The translations under genes were made by a program, and so were the position numbers. Positions 17,230-27,000 of a stretch of DNA of 64,000 nucleotides are shown here, piece after piece. Origin of the DNA: an uncultured delta proteobacterium (lineage in GTDB: Bacteria > Desulfobacterota > Binatia > UBA9968). Within the stretch, counting starts at the first letter, position 1; every line of letters starts with the position of its first letter. The notes beneath the pieces are model-generated. The model was not told the DNA's origin, made no database searches, and was given only the letters and a program-made list of their open reading frames with translations. The stretch spans positions 224,001 to 288,000 of the forward strand of contig CAVXEP010000012.1 of assembly GCA_963760795.1 (NCBI GenBank), in the 5' to 3' direction.

Positions 17230-17856
17230 TTGAACTCGCACCATCGCCATGACTTGACCAATGCGCTGGCCGCGCTCAAACGCGGCGAGGTAATTGTCTT
17301 TCCCACCGAGACGCTCTACGGTCTCGGCGCCGACGCACTGAATTTTTCCGCCGTCGAAAACATCTTTCAACTCAAGGGGCGCGATCCCGACAATCCATTT
17401 CCCGTGCTGGTCGCGGACCGGGTCATGCTCGATATCCTGGTCGCCGAAATAACTCCGCTGGCGGAAAAGTTAATGGCGCACTTCTGGCCGGGCCCGCTGA
17501 CGCTGGTACTGCCTGCGCGCGACGATATGCCGCGCCCGCTGGTCAACCGCCAGGGCGGCATCGGCGTGCGCCTGTCGAGCCAGCCCATCGCCACGGAACT
17601 GGTGCGCTTACTCGGCCATCCGCTGACCGCCACCAGCGCCAATCCTTCCGGGCAACCAGGCGCGCACACCGTCCTGCAAGCCAAAAACTATTTCTCCGCT
17701 AAGATCACCATCTACGTTGACGGCGGCGAATTGACTTCGCCAACCGGCTCCACCGTCGCGGCGGTTGAAAAAAATAAGCTGAGGATCATTCGCGCCGGCG
17801 AGATCAGCCGGGCAGCTCTCGAAGTTGTCGTGGGCAAAGGAGTCATTGAAGCATGA
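17230..17856 (+). CDS. tsaC: Threonylcarbamoyl-AMP synthase (YrdC/Sua5 family)
   Basis: PTETLYGLG, KGR, FWPGPLT, TSANPSG. Confidence 0.9.
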   Translation: MNSHHRHDLTNALAALKRGEVIVFPTETLYGLGADALNFSAVENIFQLKGRDPDNPFPVLVADRVMLDILVAEITPLAEKLMAHFWPGPLTLVLPARDDMPRPLVNRQGGIGVRLSSQPIATELVRLLGHPLTATSANPSGQPGAHTVLQAKNYFSAKITIYVDGGELTSPTGSTVAAVEKNKLRIIRAGEISRAALEVVVGKGVIEA

Positions 17857-21245: not shown

Positions 21246-22502
21246 CTATTTCTGATTCATCCCTTCCAACAGCGCCGTTCTGAGCAAATCGATGGCGCTG
21301 AGCGTCATGCGCGAGCGGTCGTAAGCGCCGCGGCCGGCGCTGGTGCTTTCACGCCTGAGAAAAGTTTTGCCATCGGTAAGTGAAACATAGGTCTGCCCGC
21401 GCGCAAGATTTTGAATCTTGCTGTCGGGATCGGCGATGGCGTGCAGCGCCAGGCCGAAATCGCAGCCGGACTGTTGGCGCGCCGCCCAAGCCATTTCATC
21501 GGTAAGCGCGGTTGGATCTTTTAAAGTCGCGTCCAGATTGATGCCGCTGCGCGCGTTTTTCAGTAATGAGCGCAGGGCATTTTCGTTATTGCAAATAAAG
21601 CCGGCGCCGAAGTTCTCATTGCCGGCGGTCTGCAGGCGCTCCGCCAACTGACCGCAGGTGAGATCCTCGCACACCGCCACGGTCTGGTTTTTTTCGCGCA
21701 GCAATTGGCCGGTGACAACCTCCATGGTTTCGTCGTCGGCGGCGAAAATGGCCGTGCCCAAAAGTTCCCGCACCTCGGCTTCCACCGGTGCGATCATCTT
21801 CATCGCCTCGGCGCGATTGGCCGCCTTGGCGGCGATGCGCACGTCGACTTGGCCGGGTAACGCCAGCACACCGACGGTTGGATTACTGGAGTTGGCGATC
21901 AAGTGGCCGACTTTATCGTCAACCGCGCTCTCGCCGATGCCGACGATCTTGAGCACGCGGTAGTGAATCACCTCGGCGAGATTGAATTTCTTTCTGAGAT
22001 AGGGTTCGACTTCGTTTTCGAACAGCCATTTCATCTCCACCGGCACGCCGGGCAACGAGAAAACCACGGCGCGCGGATCTTCGACGACAAAGGACGGTGC
22101 CGTGCCGTTGGGATTTTTCACCGGGATCGCTCCCTCCGGCATATAGGATTGGCGCAGATTGTTGGGCGTCATCGGCCGGCCGCGCCGGCGAAAGTGGCCT
22201 TCGACCTGCTCCAGCATGCCGGCGTCTTGAACGAGTTTGCGCCCAGTAACTTCGGCGACGATGTCGCGAGTCAGATCGTCCTGGGTCGGCCCGATGCCGC
22301 CGCTAGTGATAACGATGTCGGCGCGCTCCACCGCCCGCGCGATCACTTCCTTCATCCGCTCAGGATTATCGCCGACCACCGATTTGAAATATAAATTGAC
22401 CCCCAGCGCCGTCAGCCGCTGCGCCATCCAGGCCGAATTGGTATCGACGATCTGACCGAGCAGCAATTCCGAACCGATCGCGACTATTTCCGCGTTTGCC
22501 AT
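21246..22502 (-). CDS. cinA: CinA family protein (MoCF/ADP-ribose pyrophosphatase domain plus degenerate PncC domain)
   Basis: IGSELLLGQIVDTN, GGIGPTQDDLT, NPNGTAP, LPGVPVEM. Confidence 0.85.
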   Translation of the reverse strand: MANAEIVAIGSELLLGQIVDTNSAWMAQRLTALGVNLYFKSVVGDNPERMKEVIARAVERADIVITSGGIGPTQDDLTRDIVAEVTGRKLVQDAGMLEQVEGHFRRRGRPMTPNNLRQSYMPEGAIPVKNPNGTAPSFVVEDPRAVVFSLPGVPVEMKWLFENEVEPYLRKKFNLAEVIHYRVLKIVGIGESAVDDKVGHLIANSSNPTVGVLALPGQVDVRIAAKAANRAEAMKMIAPVEAEVRELLGTAIFAADDETMEVVTGQLLREKNQTVAVCEDLTCGQLAERLQTAGNENFGAGFICNNENALRSLLKNARSGINLDATLKDPTALTDEMAWAARQQSGCDFGLALHAIADPDSKIQNLARGQTYVSLTDGKTFLRRESTSAGRGAYDRSRMTLSAIDLLRTALLEGMNQK

Positions 22503-22621
22503 GGCAAGCATTCTCCTTCAATCGAGTAAAATTTATACCCTAGGCGGCGTGGCCGACACAAGAACGCCCTCGCGCCTGTGCGCCCTCCAGTGATACGATG
22601 GCATGCGAAAGACGGTCGGAT

Positions 22622-22776
22622 TCGGATGTTGCTCTCGCCAAGGCGCAAAGACGCCAAGGCCGGAAGGGATGTCATTTCGACCGAAGGGAGAAATCTCTCA
22701 TAGATCCCTCGCGTTCACTCGGGATGACGGGCATCGGCCCGTCAACTTGCTGGCGCCTTTGCGAGAGATAATCCGA
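22622..22776 (-). repeat. Composite REP-like element, copy 2 (inverted relative to copy 1)
   Basis: 22670-22744 is a near reverse complement of 21083-21156, inside a similar outer palindrome. Confidence 0.75.
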
Positions 22777-22779
22777 CCC

Positions 22780-24831
22780 ATGGTAAATTCACCGCGCGAC
22801 AACACCCGATTGCAGTTCACTCTGGAAGCCGAGTCGCCCGATTCCCGCGCGCGCGCGGCAACTTTTCAGACGCTGCATGGCGCAGTCGAAACACCGATCT
22901 TCATGCCGGTGGGCACCCAGGCGACGGTCAAAGCGCAGAGCGTGGAAAGTTTGCAAGCAACCGGCGCGCGCTTGTTATTGGCGAATACCTATCATCTCCT
23001 GCTTCGGCCCGGCGCCGAAGTCTTCAAGAAATTCGGCGGCATTCACCGCTTCATGAATTGGCCGGGCCCGGTGCTGACGGACTCCGGCGGCTTTCAGATT
23101 TTCTCGCTGCCCCATTCGCGAGCCATGAATGAAGCCGGCGCAAACTTCCAAAGCTACGTCGATGGCAAGAGTTATTTGCTGTCGCCGGAGTCGAGCATTG
23201 AAATGCAGCAAGCCATCGGCAGCGATATCATGATGGTGCTCGATCAATGCATCCCCGCCACCGCAGCGTATCCTCAGGCGCAGACGGCCATGGAGTTGAC
23301 CCACCGGTGGGCGCAACGTTCGCTGCAAGCGCGCGGCGATGCCCCGGCAGCACTCTTCGGTATCGTACAGGGCGGCGGCCATCCGCAGCTGAGAAAAATC
23401 AGCGCCGCATTCCTGTGCGAACTGCCCTTCGACGGCTTGGCCATCGGCGGTCTCGCGGTGGGCGAGACTCACGCTGAGCGTTACGATCTCACCGCACTGG
23501 TCACCGAGCAGCTGCCGGCCCAGCTGCCGCGTTATCTCATGGGCGTGGGCACGCCCAGCGATCTTCTCGAGGCCGTCCATCGCGGCGTCGACATGTTCGA
23601 CTGCATTATCCCGACCCAACTGGCGCAACGCGGCGTCGCCTTTACCTCCCACGGCAAACTACAATTGCGCCGCGCCGTTCATAAACTCGCCGACGAGCCT
23701 GTCGACGCCCGTTGCGATTGCCAATGCTGCCGAGACTACTCGCGCGCCTACCTGCACCACCTGATCAAATCGGCTGAAGTGCTCGGTTGGCATCTCTTGG
23801 GCATGCACAACCTGGCGTTCTACCATCGCCTGATGAAGGAAATGCGCGAGCGAATTTTAGCCGGCAACTTTGCCGCGTACTACCGTCATAAGCGCGCCGA
23901 GTTGATGCGCGCCGATGAAGATAATCCGAATCGCCCGCCGAAGAAAAACAAAGTCGTCCAGCCGGCCCGCTTGGGCGACTATGAGCTGCACCGCTCGGTT
24001 CATGGTTTTTACAGCATTCGCCAAATCAGCTCCGGCGAAATCATGCACTCGGTGAGCGCGCCGAGCGAAGAAGCCAACCAGCTTTACATCGAGCAGTCGG
24101 CTCTCGCCGCGCGCTTAAGCACCGACAACACCGAAGAATTGGTCATCTGGGATGTCGGCCTGGGCGCCGCCAGCAATGCCATGGCGGCGATTCACTGCTT
24201 CGAGCGCTGCCACGGGGGAAATAACCGCGCCGGCCTGCGCCCCCTGCGTCTGCTCAGTTTTGAGCAGGATCTCGATGCGCTCAGCCTCGCCGCCAAACAT
24301 GCCGGCTACTTCCCGCACCTGCACCACAGCGCGCCGTCGAAGATTCTCTCCCAAGGGAGCTGGCAACACGCGTCGGAAATGCTGCATTGGCAACTGCTGC
24401 TAGGAGACTTTCGCGACTCAATCGAAAGCGCAGCGATCCCCGACCTGATTTTTTACGATCCTTTCTCATTCAAAACCGACGCTGAACTATGGACCGGGGA
24501 AATCTTTGCGAGAATATTTGCCCGCTGCCTGGCCAAACCGGCCGAACTCTATACTTACTCCGCAGCCACCGCGGTGCGCGTGGCATTGCTGAGCGCAGGC
24601 TTCTTGGTTGCCCAAGGGGTCGGCACCGGACCGAAGAGCGAGACCACGATCGCATTCAACAAAGCCGAAAGCGCGGCCCAGCATCCGTTGGCGCCGCCAC
24701 TGCTCGACCAAAAATGGCTAGCGCGCTGGCGCCGCAGCAGCGCTAAATTTCCCGCAACCATGGCACCGGCGGAGCAAGCACAATTTGCCGCCATGATCGA
24801 AGGCCATCGGCAATTTTTAGACCCAGCTTAA
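22780..24831 (+). CDS. tgt: tRNA-guanine transglycosylase fused to C-terminal MnmC/MnmD-type SAM methyltransferase (683 aa)
   Basis: TGT domain: FMPVGT, NTYHL, TDSGGFQ, GIVQG, GGLAVGE, DMFDC, CxCxxC...H. MTase domain: GEIMHS, DVGLGAASN, YDPFS...LW, TYSAATAVR. One continuous frame. Confidence 0.9.
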   Translation: MVNSPRDNTRLQFTLEAESPDSRARAATFQTLHGAVETPIFMPVGTQATVKAQSVESLQATGARLLLANTYHLLLRPGAEVFKKFGGIHRFMNWPGPVLTDSGGFQIFSLPHSRAMNEAGANFQSYVDGKSYLLSPESSIEMQQAIGSDIMMVLDQCIPATAAYPQAQTAMELTHRWAQRSLQARGDAPAALFGIVQGGGHPQLRKISAAFLCELPFDGLAIGGLAVGETHAERYDLTALVTEQLPAQLPRYLMGVGTPSDLLEAVHRGVDMFDCIIPTQLAQRGVAFTSHGKLQLRRAVHKLADEPVDARCDCQCCRDYSRAYLHHLIKSAEVLGWHLLGMHNLAFYHRLMKEMRERILAGNFAAYYRHKRAELMRADEDNPNRPPKKNKVVQPARLGDYELHRSVHGFYSIRQISSGEIMHSVSAPSEEANQLYIEQSALAARLSTDNTEELVIWDVGLGAASNAMAAIHCFERCHGGNNRAGLRPLRLLSFEQDLDALSLAAKHAGYFPHLHHSAPSKILSQGSWQHASEMLHWQLLLGDFRDSIESAAIPDLIFYDPFSFKTDAELWTGEIFARIFARCLAKPAELYTYSAATAVRVALLSAGFLVAQGVGTGPKSETTIAFNKAESAAQHPLAPPLLDQKWLARWRRSSAKFPATMAPAEQAQFAAMIEGHRQFLDPA

Positions 24832-25237
24832 TTTAGCTAAGCCCGAATCGTTTTCGCAAAGTGGATGTTTTTGACTAGCTGGATTGGACTGCGGTGGGGA
24901 CTGCCAGACTCGCATCTCCCTGCGTGGCTTGAATAGGAGTACTCAGGCGTATCGTACACTGCGCTTAGTTCTCATTTAATCCTGCACTCGGCTTTATCCA
25001 GGTACACGAAACCGAAAAAAAACCAGTGCTCTCTTAGACCTAATCGTGTACACTGACAATTATTTTCTCCCTTTGTTATTTCAGAGCTGTTTCTTGATCA
25101 ACTTTTTTACAAGAAAGGCTCGCGACGCTTCGCGAAACTGCAATGGCATCAATTTGTCTTGGAACTCCCTGCGGTCTCAATAATAGAGTAAGGTCGACGT
25201 GCAAGATTTCTGGATAACCGCGCAGCAGTTGACCGTT

Positions 25238-25504
25238 ATGAAAGATAGTTTCCTAAAGGATTTCTATGAAGCGGCACACAACGCGAAACGCGCTGTGTTC
25301 CAACAGGCGGTTAATCAGTTAATCGAGGCGGGCGCGGATCAGCGTCGGATTGAATATCTCGTCATGCCAAATAGATCCGAGCGCATCCAATACGGTCGGA
25401 TTTATTTCGAGTTGCACACCAGCTTCAATAACTACTTCATCCGATACGAGATGCGTCCAGGATTCGCGATCAAATCCAGTTTGTTGTCAGACCGTCAGTC
25501 CTAG
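25238..25504 (+). CDS. Hypothetical protein in an AT-rich segment
   Basis: ORF with protein-like composition; start uncertain (25199 or 25238). Confidence 0.4.
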   Translation: MKDSFLKDFYEAAHNAKRAVFQQAVNQLIEAGADQRRIEYLVMPNRSERIQYGRIYFELHTSFNNYFIRYEMRPGFAIKSSLLSDRQS

Positions 25505-25621
25505 CACATTCGCTTCTCCGAATTTTTGCCTAAGAAGTTTAGTTGTACATCTCGCCACTGATCCCAGACCCCTCATCCATAAATCCGTGATGTCATTTTG
25601 ATATTGAGAAATAATTTGCGT

Positions 25622-25700
25622 GACGTCGTGGCAACAATACGGGGACGCCGGTTTTACGCCTGGGCGTTGATGGACAATCACGCGCACATTCTGCTGAGTA
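25622..25700 (+). pseudogene. Fragment of Y1 HUH transposase (RAYT/IS200-like)
   Basis: Encodes TGTPV, a frameshift, then YAWALMDNHAHILL, which contains the NHxH HUH motif. Confidence 0.55.
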
Positions 25701-25831
25701 ATGAGAGTCTGCGCAGAATAGAGGGATGTTGTCGAAGATGAAGATATTGAAAAGAGTTTTGTCCAGCCAGTCAACAACCTCTCTTTTGACATCCCCTTTG
25801 ACAAAAAATAAGCGGAACCCGAGCGTGAAAT

Positions 25832-25862
25832 AAAAAAGGCGCCCCGGGGTGACAGGGCGCCT
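25832..25862 (-). terminator. Intrinsic terminator
   Basis: AGGCGCCC/GGGCGCCT stem followed by a T-run on the minus strand. Confidence 0.65.
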
Positions 25863-26086
25863 GAGTCGGCGGTAGGTTGCAGTATCACGTAAGCTGTACT
25901 CGCACCTACTGCTCTGCCTAGGGAGGCAATGCCAAGAAGCAGAGTATCTCGATCGAGTCGCCAACTTCTGATTTCAGCATAGCGCTGGAAAAGTCGAAGT
26001 GAAGACCTTGTGAGAGAAAAGCCTTAAAGCGGTCCACTTGACGTCCGCACCTGTCACCCATCAGGATCAAGCCATGGGAACGATCC

Positions 26087-26115
26087 TGTAGGGGCGATTC
26101 ATGAATCGCCCGTAC
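26087..26115. repeat. GTAG-family REP palindrome
   Basis: GTAGGGGCGATTCATGAATCGCCCGTAC. Confidence 0.7.
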
Positions 26116-26250
26116 GGAATCATCTACCGCCCTGGCCAGTTTACTTGCCCAAGAAAACTGTCGGTACCACGCCGCCCTCCAACGGTAGCCAATCATCGCC
26201 GGCTGCCCCTTGCACTTGTCCGTTCATGACTTCTTTGCCAGTATGGCCTC

Positions 26251-27000
26251 ATGATCATCTTGCTTTCCAACGATGACGGCATCCAATCCGACGGACTCAC
26301 CGCTCTGGAAACGAGCCTCGCTCACCTCGGCGAACTCTATACCGTGGCGCCGGATCGGGCGCAGAGTTCCACGAGCCACTCGTTGACCTTGCACCGGCCG
26401 CTGCGCGTCCAGGAGCTCGGGCCGCGGCGCATGTCGGTCAATGGCACGCCGGTGGATTGCGTCAAGTTGGCGCTCACCGGCCTTTTGCCGGTAAAGCCAG
26501 ACCTGGTCGTCTCCGGCATTAACAAAGGTCCCAATCTCGGCGACGATATTATTTATTCAGGCACGGTATCCGCGGCCATCGAGGGTACGCTTTTGGGCAT
26601 CCCTGCCGTCGCCGTATCTCTTGTCACCTTCGAAAATTTTGATTTTGGCGCCGCGGCGGAGTTCACCGCGAGGTTGATCGAGTGCATCCAAAAGCCCGGC
26701 ATTCCGGCGGGCACCCTGCTCAACGTCAACGTGCCCAATTTACCGAGAGAACAACTCAAGGGCTGGAAATTCACCCGCATGGGCAAGCGCCATTACAGCG
26801 AAACCATCGTCGAACGGGTCGACCCGCGCGGCGGCAAGTATTATTGGATCGGCGGCGACGACTTGGGTTTCGCCAATGACGACGGCACCGATTGTGTCGC
26901 CGTGCACGAAGGCTACGTCTCGGTGACGCCGCTGCAATGCGATATGACCGACCACCGGCTGCTCAAGGACACGCCGGTGGCACAGTTTCCCTGGCCCTGA
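26251..27000 (+). CDS. surE: 5'/3'-nucleotidase SurE
   Basis: LLSNDDG, GTPVDCV, SGINKGPNLG, YSGTVSAA. Confidence 0.95.
   Translation: MIILLSNDDGIQSDGLTALETSLAHLGELYTVAPDRAQSSTSHSLTLHRPLRVQELGPRRMSVNGTPVDCVKLALTGLLPVKPDLVVSGINKGPNLGDDIIYSGTVSAAIEGTLLGIPAVAVSLVTFENFDFGAAAEFTARLIECIQKPGIPAGTLLNVNVPNLPREQLKGWKFTRMGKRHYSETIVERVDPRGGKYYWIGGDDLGFANDDGTDCVAVHEGYVSVTPLQCDMTDHRLLKDTPVAQFPWP

Follow-up and report, generated by a model that had tools for sequence, protein, structure and literature searches.

A single open reading frame on the forward strand of contig CAVXEP010000012.1, from an uncultured delta proteobacterium of the class Binatia, joins a tRNA-guanine transglycosylase (TGT) to a methyltransferase that resembles MnmC2 and is predicted to use S-adenosylmethionine (SAM). 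All coordinates refer to the 64,000-nucleotide stretch of this contig that was analysed, which we call the window. The TGT half belongs to a second, paralogous clade (Tgt2) and the methyltransferase half to a subfamily separate from MnmC2, and we consider it likely that the two halves cooperate in a function distinct from those of Tgt and of MnmC2. The gene and its features are listed here.

22780..24831, + strand: Tgt2-methyltransferase fusion, whole gene; 683 amino acids (aa) plus stop, a single open frame with both Pfam domains within it
22846..23898, + strand: TGT domain, Tgt2 paralog clade; aa 23-373, Pfam TGT E 1.1e-143
23077..23091, + strand: TDSGG, aa 100-104, with the catalytic D101 (Zymomonas mobilis D102) and S102; invariant in 92/92 Tgt2 and 37/37 canonical sequences
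23446..23466, + strand: GGLAVGE, preQ1/guanine pocket, aa 223-229 (Z. mobilis G229-E235); L225, A226, V227 and E229 each 92/92
23590..23604, + strand: DMFDC, aa 271-275, with the nucleophile D274 (Z. mobilis D280); D274 and C275 invariant in both clades
23605..23631, + strand: Tgt2 signature IIPTQLAQR, aa 276-284, in place of the canonical V.PTR..RN
23713..23730, + strand: CDCQCC zinc site, aa 312-317; ligands C312, C314 and C317, each 92/92
23806-23808, + strand: fourth zinc ligand, H343, in 92/92 Tgt2 rows
23899..23970, + strand: linker with a basic PPKKNK stretch, aa 374-397; predicted local distance difference test score (pLDDT) 67-77, variable in length and sequence among fused homologues
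23971..24828, + strand: MnmC2-like SAM methyltransferase domain of a subfamily of its own, aa 398-683
24148..24177, + strand: motif I, WDVGLGAASN, predicted SAM binding, aa 457-466; aligns to E. coli ESGFGTGLN
24454..24468, + strand: motif IV, YDPFS, aa 559-563; D560 corresponds to E. coli MnmC D178 and Aquifex D193
24658..24828, + strand: C-terminal extension (WL.RW.RS ... H.QF), outside the Pfam domain and conserved in the subfamily

One reading frame holds both domains in at least six phyla

Translation of 22780-24831 (+) is free of stops over 683 aa, and the Pfam and NCBIfam searches bear out what the initial annotation had read from the frame, namely a full TGT followed by a full MnmC2-like SAM domain. 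An alternative in-frame ATG at 22603 would give 742 aa; we prefer the start at 22780 because the N-termini of the homologues, taken as an alignment consensus, match it. Pattern matching in species-representative genomes gave at least 581 confirmed stretches (from 600 matches), of which the best 80 were kept. These come from at least six phyla, and 76 of them have TGT and methyltransferase in one frame. The exceptions are two true stand-alone genes (L062 and L065) and two genes cut by contig ends. The hosts of the kept loci are Bdellovibrionota, Verrucomicrobiota, Steroidobacteraceae and other Gammaproteobacteria, one cultured Leptospira (a Leptospira ilyithenensis isolate), Lentisphaerales, Kiritimatiellia, Vicinamibacteria and Riflebacteria.

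The junction between the domains, where a stop codon had been named as the outcome that would speak against a fusion, is crossed without indels by contigs from other soil metagenome runs: X2 record 21 spans 23583-24437 and record 11 of the RNA library X15 spans 23611-24026. The RNA-library contig is evidence for the presence of the gene, not proof of its transcription. Conservation across phyla together with the independent contigs that bridge the junction rules out a mis-assembly or other artefact.

Of 8000 candidates scored in a word-indexed search with the methyltransferase part, 1768 proteins matched at E <= 0.001, and the top 120 of these all carry both Pfam domains. The exhaustive search of cluster representatives gave 2070 matches at E <= 0.001 (259 at E <= 1e-30), a mixture of fused proteins of about 660-690 aa and shorter forms. 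Because public sources name the fused proteins only "Tgt" or "queuine tRNA-ribosyltransferase", a second activity is invisible in their annotation. The full-length AlphaFold model, built with 55 fused homologues, has a mean pLDDT of 93.6 and a predicted template modelling score (pTM) of 0.69; its linker, at about aa 380-400, is weaker. No chain among solved structures spans both halves by sequence search, and none of the best 50 Foldseek matches listed for the model against the PDB covers both; all of these are TGT chains, with TMq about 0.52.

The TGT half is a second Tgt paralog with an altered motif after the nucleophile Asp

Both catalytic Asp residues, a GGLAVGE pocket and a zinc site had been recognised in the initial annotation, and all are present (D101 and D274; aa 223-229; C312, C314, C317 and H343). 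The TGT half passes the NCBIfam Tgt equivalog model TIGR00430 with 443.6 bits against a cut-off of 306.75 (the canonical copy in the same genome scores 506.1 bits), and it matches the Z. mobilis TGT over aa 8-374 at E 1.8e-108 and about 46% identity. The modelled half superposes on the Z. mobilis enzyme with a TM-score of 0.95-0.96 and a root-mean-square deviation of 1.6 Å. Eleven positions outside the zinc site, D101, S102, Q106, D155, C157, L225, A226, V227, E229, M254 and D274, are identical in 92/92 Tgt2 rows (Z. mobilis D102, S103, Q107, D156, C158, L231, A232, V233, E235, M260 and D280), the zinc ligands (C318, C320, C323 and H349 in Z. mobilis numbering) are all kept in Tgt2, and conservation of Z. 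mobilis G229 and G230 reaches 97% or more in either clade. Other RNA-side residues, K/R51, V44, L67 and N69, are retained as well. We judge it unlikely that a dead TGT domain serves here as a mere anchor, as the catalytic, pocket and zinc residues are all 92/92.

What has changed is the motif that follows the nucleophile Asp, a feature absent from the initial annotation. Canonical Tgt reads DCV.PTR..RNG at this site, with V282, R286 and R289 each in 37/37 and N290 in 34/37 sequences, and the Z. mobilis and E. coli enzymes show the same motif in the alignments, whereas Tgt2 reads DC(I/T/S).P(T/S)x..(Q/K/R)(R/Q)G. V282 is found in 0/92 and R286 in 0/92 Tgt2 rows, with Q, A, S or V at the latter site; the R289 position holds R or K in 26/92, and position 284 holds R in 51/92 and Q in 41/92. 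Further fused database proteins have Arg at position 280, the R286 site, in 5 of 139 cases. R286 and R289 are residues that we take, provisionally, to contact U35 (PDB 1Q2R). In the accessible parts of the TGT literature, including those of PMC5395182, PMC13416341, PMC6165067 and PMC8136771, no printed statement on the role of Arg286 or Arg289 was found. Because the canonical Arg286 is replaced clade-wide, the target tRNAs, or the way in which the loop is held or handed over, may differ from what is known for the classic GUN set. Tgt2-specific positions elsewhere are A68, Y126, M151, S160-T161, R234 and Q156; near the pocket, Z. mobilis E157 is replaced by Q in 68/92 Tgt2 rows, and position 226 (Z. 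mobilis A232) is A in 92/92 Tgt2 rows and S in 30/37 canonical ones.

A maximum likelihood tree of 129 TGT domains (quick IQ-TREE run, LG+G4), for which the canonical rows were taken from the same genomes as the fusions, separates 92 Tgt2 rows (90 fused, 2 stand-alone) from 37 canonical Tgt rows with a support of 100 in the SH-like approximate likelihood ratio test (SH-aLRT). The two clades mostly coexist in one genome. For the window's class 151 genomes were sampled. A PF05430 match within a frame of 677-810 aa, taken here as the sign of the fusion, occurs in 22 of them, and 20 of these carriers possess a second TGT locus, the other two being genomes of 89% completeness; two TGT matches were seen in only 4 of the 129 class genomes without the fusion. 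Carriers from other phyla have a second TGT locus in 29 of 30 cases, which brings the combined figure to 48 of 51 genomes when the genome common to both samples (G173 = G324) is counted once. A phylum-wide PF05430 scan of 151 genomes matched 16, with a strong match in a frame of fused size only in the window's own genome and weak matches (E 4e-4 to 1e-3) in other long frames. In the window's genome (6.58 Mb, 88.9% complete) the fusion is one of two TGT genes; the other, a stand-alone tgt (397 aa), lies directly after queA on a different contig. Tgt2 does not behave as the orthologue of the housekeeping enzyme: it forms a separate clade, it is not single copy, and queA adjoins the canonical tgt instead.

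The window's copy groups with that of a congener in the TGT tree and lies nearer to the Verrucomicrobiota copies than to most copies of its own class, which hints at horizontal transfer; judging from such sequence relationships, the fusion gene seems to move between phyla.

Immediately after the 3' end of the fusion gene, at 24850-26000, about 1.2 kb of the window have a G+C content of 45-47% against about 59% around them. The only frame in this stretch, at 25199-25504, encodes 101 aa, and Rfam gave no match there. Foreign DNA may have left this remnant, which would agree with the horizontal acquisition at which the tree hints.

The methyltransferase half forms a subfamily apart from MnmC2

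The second half passes the Pfam model Methyltransf_30 (PF05430) over aa 511-626 (E 1.9e-17, 63.8 bits against a cut-off of 22). On the NCBIfam MnmC2 model NF033855 it scores 78.9 bits over aa 419-626, below the cut-off of 136, and 15 other subfamily members scanned with that model also stay below it, at 62.8-104.3 bits. Its best solved match is the stand-alone MnmC2 of Aquifex aeolicus (3vyw; E 5.3e-8, aa 381-630), and hhalign pairs it with the N-domain of E. coli MnmC at a probability of 98.2. Within motif I, D458, G460, G462 and N466 are invariant in the 55 fused sequences; within motif IV, D560 is invariant and P561, F562 and S563 are at least 90% conserved, the D560-P-F triplet aligning to E. 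coli D178-G-F180. The SFE, GDF and TYS motifs are kept too. The roles of motif I and of the catalytic Asp in MnmC2 (DUF752) are described in the accessible part of PMC3527978. In the C-terminal extension, which the stand-alone members also possess and which is modelled as helices with pLDDT > 90, W646, L647, W650, R652, S653, Q678 and F679 are at least 90% conserved in the fused alignment.

In a tree of 96 rows (quick search, one model, long branches flagged), 55 fused and 30 stand-alone members form one clade with an SH-aLRT of 99. This clade excludes the E. coli MnmC N-domain, the Leptospira MnmC2, the bifunctional MnmC and eight other canonical or Aquifex-like MnmC2 proteins.

Stand-alone paralogs of the methyltransferase subfamily accompany the fusion in G310 (L146, L147), G321 (L148) and G307 (L149), one or two per genome; they score 107-156 bits to the window's domain and are basal in the methyltransferase tree. 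Two of them lie divergent next to leuS. The neighbours of these four basal paralogs are an RlmF-like methyltransferase, leuS, YceI, DJ-1 and accA, none of them related to queuosine.

The two halves are kept together where MnmE and MnmG were not found, and also when split

The fusion coexists with a genuine MnmC or MnmC2 in 3 of 30 carriers: the Leptospira isolate G297 (MnmC2, 235.4 bits), G311 (140.6 bits) and G322 (MnmC2, 197.8 bits, and MnmC1, 216 bits). The window's genome has an mnmE-mnmG operon, and no further PF05430 protein was found in it. The scan for the MnmG C-terminal domain was positive for 36 of 40 carriers. The four without a match are G326 and three genomes of one family of the window's class, G250, G290 and G173, which are 98-100% complete. 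The sole GIDA match in each of these three scores 305-321 bits and is TrmFO-like (for reference, MnmG and the TrmFO-like paralog of the window's genome score 572 and 313.5 bits), and G326 has no GIDA match. MnmE above the cut-off of 252.6 was found in none of the four, the best match in G250, G290 and G173 being about 105 bits. The fusion is under purifying selection in these three genomes, with dN/dS (Nei-Gojobori) of 0.17-0.21 for the TGT part and 0.24-0.33 for the methyltransferase part, and its invariant catalytic residues are intact. Since an enzyme that needs MnmEG-made nm5U as its sole substrate should not persist there, these genomes argue that the fusion is independent of MnmEG.

A non-carrier of the same family, G164, likewise has only a TrmFO-like GIDA match and no MnmE above the cut-off; it was scanned for GIDA and MnmE, and the scan for the MnmG C-terminal domain covered G250, G290 and G173. 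These four genomes (98-100% complete; free-living, 5-7 Mb) suggest that their family lost the xm5U34 pathway.

In two genomes, G314 and G323, the methyltransferase is a separate gene of 279 aa, and each genome has two stand-alone TGT genes, the canonical one by queA and the other on a different contig. This second TGT falls inside the Tgt2 clade beside fused Bdellovibrionota (6-row clade, SH-aLRT 100), and the separate methyltransferases stand beside the same fused relatives (5-row clade, SH-aLRT 98). By their sequences G314 and G323 look like cases of fission in which both products were retained.

The fusion is added to an ordinary queuosine gene set

Of 40 fusion genomes, 38 have a QueA match, in many cases adjoining the canonical tgt, and the window's genome also has queG and queC; QueF was not found in it. 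Because QueA is present in 38/40 carriers and canonical tgt in nearly all, the fusion is an add-on to an otherwise ordinary queuosine gene set and no substitute for it. The proposal that its product would be an alternative to queuosine therefore has to be replaced by that of an added branch. No neighbour of the fusion is conserved: the commonest one is shared by 8 of 101 loci once shadow frames overlapping the gene are removed.

In the window's class QueF (PF14489) occurs in 16 of 19 genomes of the window's order, the window's own genome counted, and in 0 of 132 elsewhere, with or without the fusion; as a discriminator of fusion carriers it fails, being confined to the order irrespective of the fusion. 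TGT was found in 148 of the 151 class genomes and QueA in all 10 class genomes checked. Most of the class could obtain its preQ1 by salvage or from a reductase that is not orthologous to QueF. On a contig outside the window, the queA beside the canonical tgt of the window's genome (G000:C19:138701-139730; L001 about 297-1326) reads in two frames, residues about 1-70 ending in a stop and the other frame running from about ...FPARLL / GTKDSGGKVEV..., either because queA is a pseudogene with a true frameshift or because the assembly is wrong at this point. With QueF not found either, the frame break could be a sign that this organism is losing the classic queuosine branch. Among the 30 carriers from other phyla, G318, a metagenome-assembled genome of the Riflebacteria (L092), is the sole one in which canonical tgt, QueA and QueF were not found; the gap may be one of assembly, and if it is real, the fusion would be the only 7-deazaguanine enzyme of that organism.

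About 5 kb upstream of the fusion, at 17230-17856 (+), a 208-aa frame appears from its translation to resemble TsaC/YrdC. TsaC/YrdC is the L-threonylcarbamoyladenylate synthase and makes t6A37 in tRNA. The frame is not conserved beside the fusion in other genomes.

A possible side branch at preQ1-tRNA

The observed anatomy, the two clades, the co-occurrence patterns and the purifying selection are the ground for the reading that we favour, if tentatively and at somewhat less than an even chance: a coupled enzyme that would insert preQ1 (7-aminomethyl-7-deazaguanine) and then N-methylate it. Judging from its conserved residues, Tgt2 would exchange an anticodon-loop guanine, most likely G34, for preQ1, using the canonical Asp pair, pocket and zinc site; the inserted base is predicted to be preQ1 because the pocket is conserved. 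The tethered MnmC2-like domain would then methylate the primary aminomethyl nitrogen of the inserted base with SAM and the Asp of D-P-F, giving N-methyl-preQ1, a step for which family chemistry and genomic coupling argue. We predict this product because the only known chemistry of the family is the SAM-dependent methylation of a primary aminomethyl group on base 34. That the two steps would fall on one substrate is suggested by the dedicated paralog and methyltransferase, their co-inheritance, their redundancy with the housekeeping enzymes and the independence from MnmEG. QueA uses SAM to modify the aminomethyl nitrogen of preQ1 at position 34 of tRNA. As the cell also has canonical Tgt, QueA and QueG, preQ1-tRNA would be a branch point, and fusion of the two halves, or their joint retention after a split, would let methylation outcompete QueA there, the outcome being a side branch of the queuosine pathway. 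The coupled function put forward in the initial annotation thus gains from the extra Tgt paralog, the separate methyltransferase clade, the coexistence with MnmC or MnmC2 in 3/30 carriers and the genomes in which MnmEG was not found, and N-methyl-preQ1 itself keeps the standing of a prediction.

A bolder form of this reading, which we regard as possible but rather doubtful, is that of a self-contained, horizontally mobile module that would install an undescribed tRNA nucleoside, N-methyl-preQ1 (7-(methylamino)methyl-7-deazaguanosine) or its dimethyl form, on a non-classic set of tRNAs or loop contexts as compared with U33-G34-U35. Base exchange would be followed by methylation on the enzyme, and preQ1 would be diverted from queuosine synthesis.

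Compared with bacterial Tgt (Z. mobilis and E. coli; TIGR00430, PF01702), the first half shares the fold, the catalytic Asp pair, the preQ1 pocket, the zinc site and the equivalog score, but it is a separate paralog beside canonical tgt, unlinked to queA, with a replaced V.PTR..RN motif and a methyltransferase at its C-terminus. The second half shares with MnmC2/DUF752 (E. coli MnmC N-domain, Aquifex 3vyw) the PF05430 fold family, motif I, SFE, GDF, D.F and the aromatic residue of motif VI; unlike MnmC2 it lies below the NF033855 cut-off in a clade of its own, has D-P-F where MnmC2 has D-G/A-F, carries the conserved C-terminal extension, and is found both where MnmEG was not found and alongside true MnmC2. 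MnmC2 is joined in MnmC to the oxidase MnmC1 and here to Tgt2. MnmC offers the nearest parallel in design, as one chain performs two consecutive steps on a wobble base and its methyltransferase uses the aminomethyl group made by its partner (accessible part of PMC3527978); the partner there is an FAD oxidase acting on cmnm5U and here a base-exchange enzyme acting on G, for which consecutive steps are our proposal.

Phage DNA provides a precedent for the product. There, as the available text of PMC10516641 relates, the transglycosylase DpdA inserts preQ1 and the methylase DpdM converts it to 7-(methylamino)methyl-7-deazaguanine, so that N-methyl-preQ1 exists in nature. The precedent that the initial annotation drew from this holds for the product and not for the enzyme, since DpdM is a DUF3109 protein with Cys-rich CxxxCxxCC metal sites that acts on DNA and is unrelated to PF05430 (PMC10516641, in the same portion). 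Kinship with DpdM is ruled out, as Pfam finds only TGT and Methyltransf_30 in the fusion, and no PADLOC family matches at E <= 0.001 that would link the fusion to DpdA or a defence system. QueA, present in the same genomes, would share with the fusion the nitrogen that it targets; it transfers the ribosyl moiety of SAM, whereas the fused class I methyltransferase would compete for that nitrogen with a methyl group.

Several observations weigh against a coupled synthesis of N-methyl-preQ1, for which the substrate base, the site, the order of the steps and the product are what we infer. With Arg286 lost, the target may not be the classic UGU loop, in which case the modified position could differ as well. 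The full-length model, with its pTM of 0.69 and low-confidence linker, establishes no fixed arrangement of the active sites. QueF is above the cut-off in only 21/40 fusion genomes, which leaves the origin of preQ1 doubtful for many hosts; QueA, however, depends on preQ1 in these genomes as well. There is no que gene beside the fusion at 101 loci, no riboswitch or other RNA element at E <= 0.1 (Rfam) in the window from 22400 to 26400, and no preQ1 riboswitch in 11 related loci, where only three tRNA genes reach Rfam gathering scores. The nearest solved relative of the methyltransferase is Aquifex MnmC2, a proven nm5U methylase, and the basal members of the subfamily are stand-alone genes with neighbours unrelated to queuosine, which could be ordinary divergent MnmC2. 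Finally, the fusion or its subfamily is the sole MnmC2-type PF05430 protein found in 27 of the 30 genomes and in the window's genome, and the presence of MnmG in 36/40 leaves room for an MnmC2-like role in most hosts.

Such a role is the core of the plainer account that accompanied the initial annotation, two independent wobble enzymes in one chain, in which the TGT half would supply preQ1-tRNA for queuosine and the other half would be the organism's MnmC2, turning nm5(s2)U34, made by MnmEG with ammonium, into mnm5(s2)U34 on other tRNAs. The window's genome, with mnmE-mnmG and no other PF05430 protein, would suit it, as would the MnmG of 36/40 carriers, the retention of all MnmC2 catalytic motifs, the passing of the Tgt equivalog cut-off and the Aquifex MnmC2, which works without MnmC1 (PMC3527978, accessible part). 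The comparative data fit it poorly and lead us to hold it improbable: the TGT half would be redundant in 48/51 genomes that have canonical tgt, the methyltransferase would be redundant in the 3/30 with true MnmC or MnmC2 and, although purifying selection acts on the gene in the three near-complete genomes that gave no MnmE and MnmG, it would be without its substrate in them; both halves lie in clades apart from the housekeeping enzymes, split forms keep both, and the account offers no reason to fuse enzymes that act on different tRNAs. Rather less unlikely, though we still doubt it, is that the TGT half delivers the tRNA, or inserts preQ1 as usual, and the methyl group goes to another amine of the loop, such as an exocyclic one at 32, 35, 37 or 38. 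Tight coupling demands only that the two halves act on one tRNA and leaves the nucleotide free, the TGT half has an altered RNA-contact motif next to its catalytic Asp, and D-P-F in motif IV is the form found in Trm1, which acts on the exocyclic amine of G26, as opposed to the D-G/A-F of MnmC2 (PMC3527978, in part). This account leaves it unexplained why canonical Tgt would not serve; a mere binding module has no need of catalytic and pocket residues that are 92/92, and the only proven chemistry of the family is on an aliphatic aminomethyl group of base 34.

The order of events could also be reversed, free preQ1 being methylated first and Tgt2 being specialised for inserting N-methyl-preQ1 while canonical Tgt serves queuosine. 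This would account for a second, specialised TGT and for the clade-specific changes near the pocket (E157 to Q in 68/92; position 226 A in 92/92 as against S in 30/37), and the E. coli TGT is described as highly promiscuous, inserting a variety of substrates (PMC13416341, accessible portion). We think it quite improbable, since known MnmC2 enzymes use tRNA and not a free base, an enzyme for the free base needs no tether to a transglycosylase, and L225, V227 and C157, which contact the aminomethyl group, are unchanged. Least probable of all, in our estimate, is that Tgt2 acts on another nucleic acid, be it a tRNA position besides 34, another RNA, or DNA in the manner of DpdA, and that the methyltransferase finishes the modification there. 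The loss of Arg286 in all 92 Tgt2 rows with changes in neighbouring residues, the lack of linkage to que genes and the seeming mobility of the gene between phyla would agree with it; about 46% identity and a near-identical modelled fold to the Z. mobilis TGT, the equivalog score above the cut-off, the retained K/R51, V44, L67 and N69, and the absence of any match to the PADLOC defence models, which include Dpd, all speak against it.

Significance

Queuosine is among the best studied tRNA modifications, and its bacterial pathway is seen as linear after Tgt, from preQ1 to oQ and Q. Both parts of the fusion are known families; a prior description of the paralog pair, of the fusion or of methyl-preQ1 in tRNA was not found in a literature search, though supplementary tables of queuosine papers might list fusions, and the pair, the fusion and the predicted product thus appear to be undescribed. 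The replaced Arg286 amounts to an experiment of nature on anticodon-loop recognition by TGT and bears on TGT-based site-specific labelling of RNA. If the coupled synthesis of N-methyl-preQ1 is correct, the queuosine pathway would branch, with a third fate of preQ1 in bacteria and a new decoding determinant, and cellular tRNA may contain a 7-deazaguanine derivative that has until now been known from phage DNA alone. This would concern several hundred species of soil and freshwater, among them Verrucomicrobiota, Bdellovibrionota, Steroidobacteraceae, some Leptospira and the window's class.

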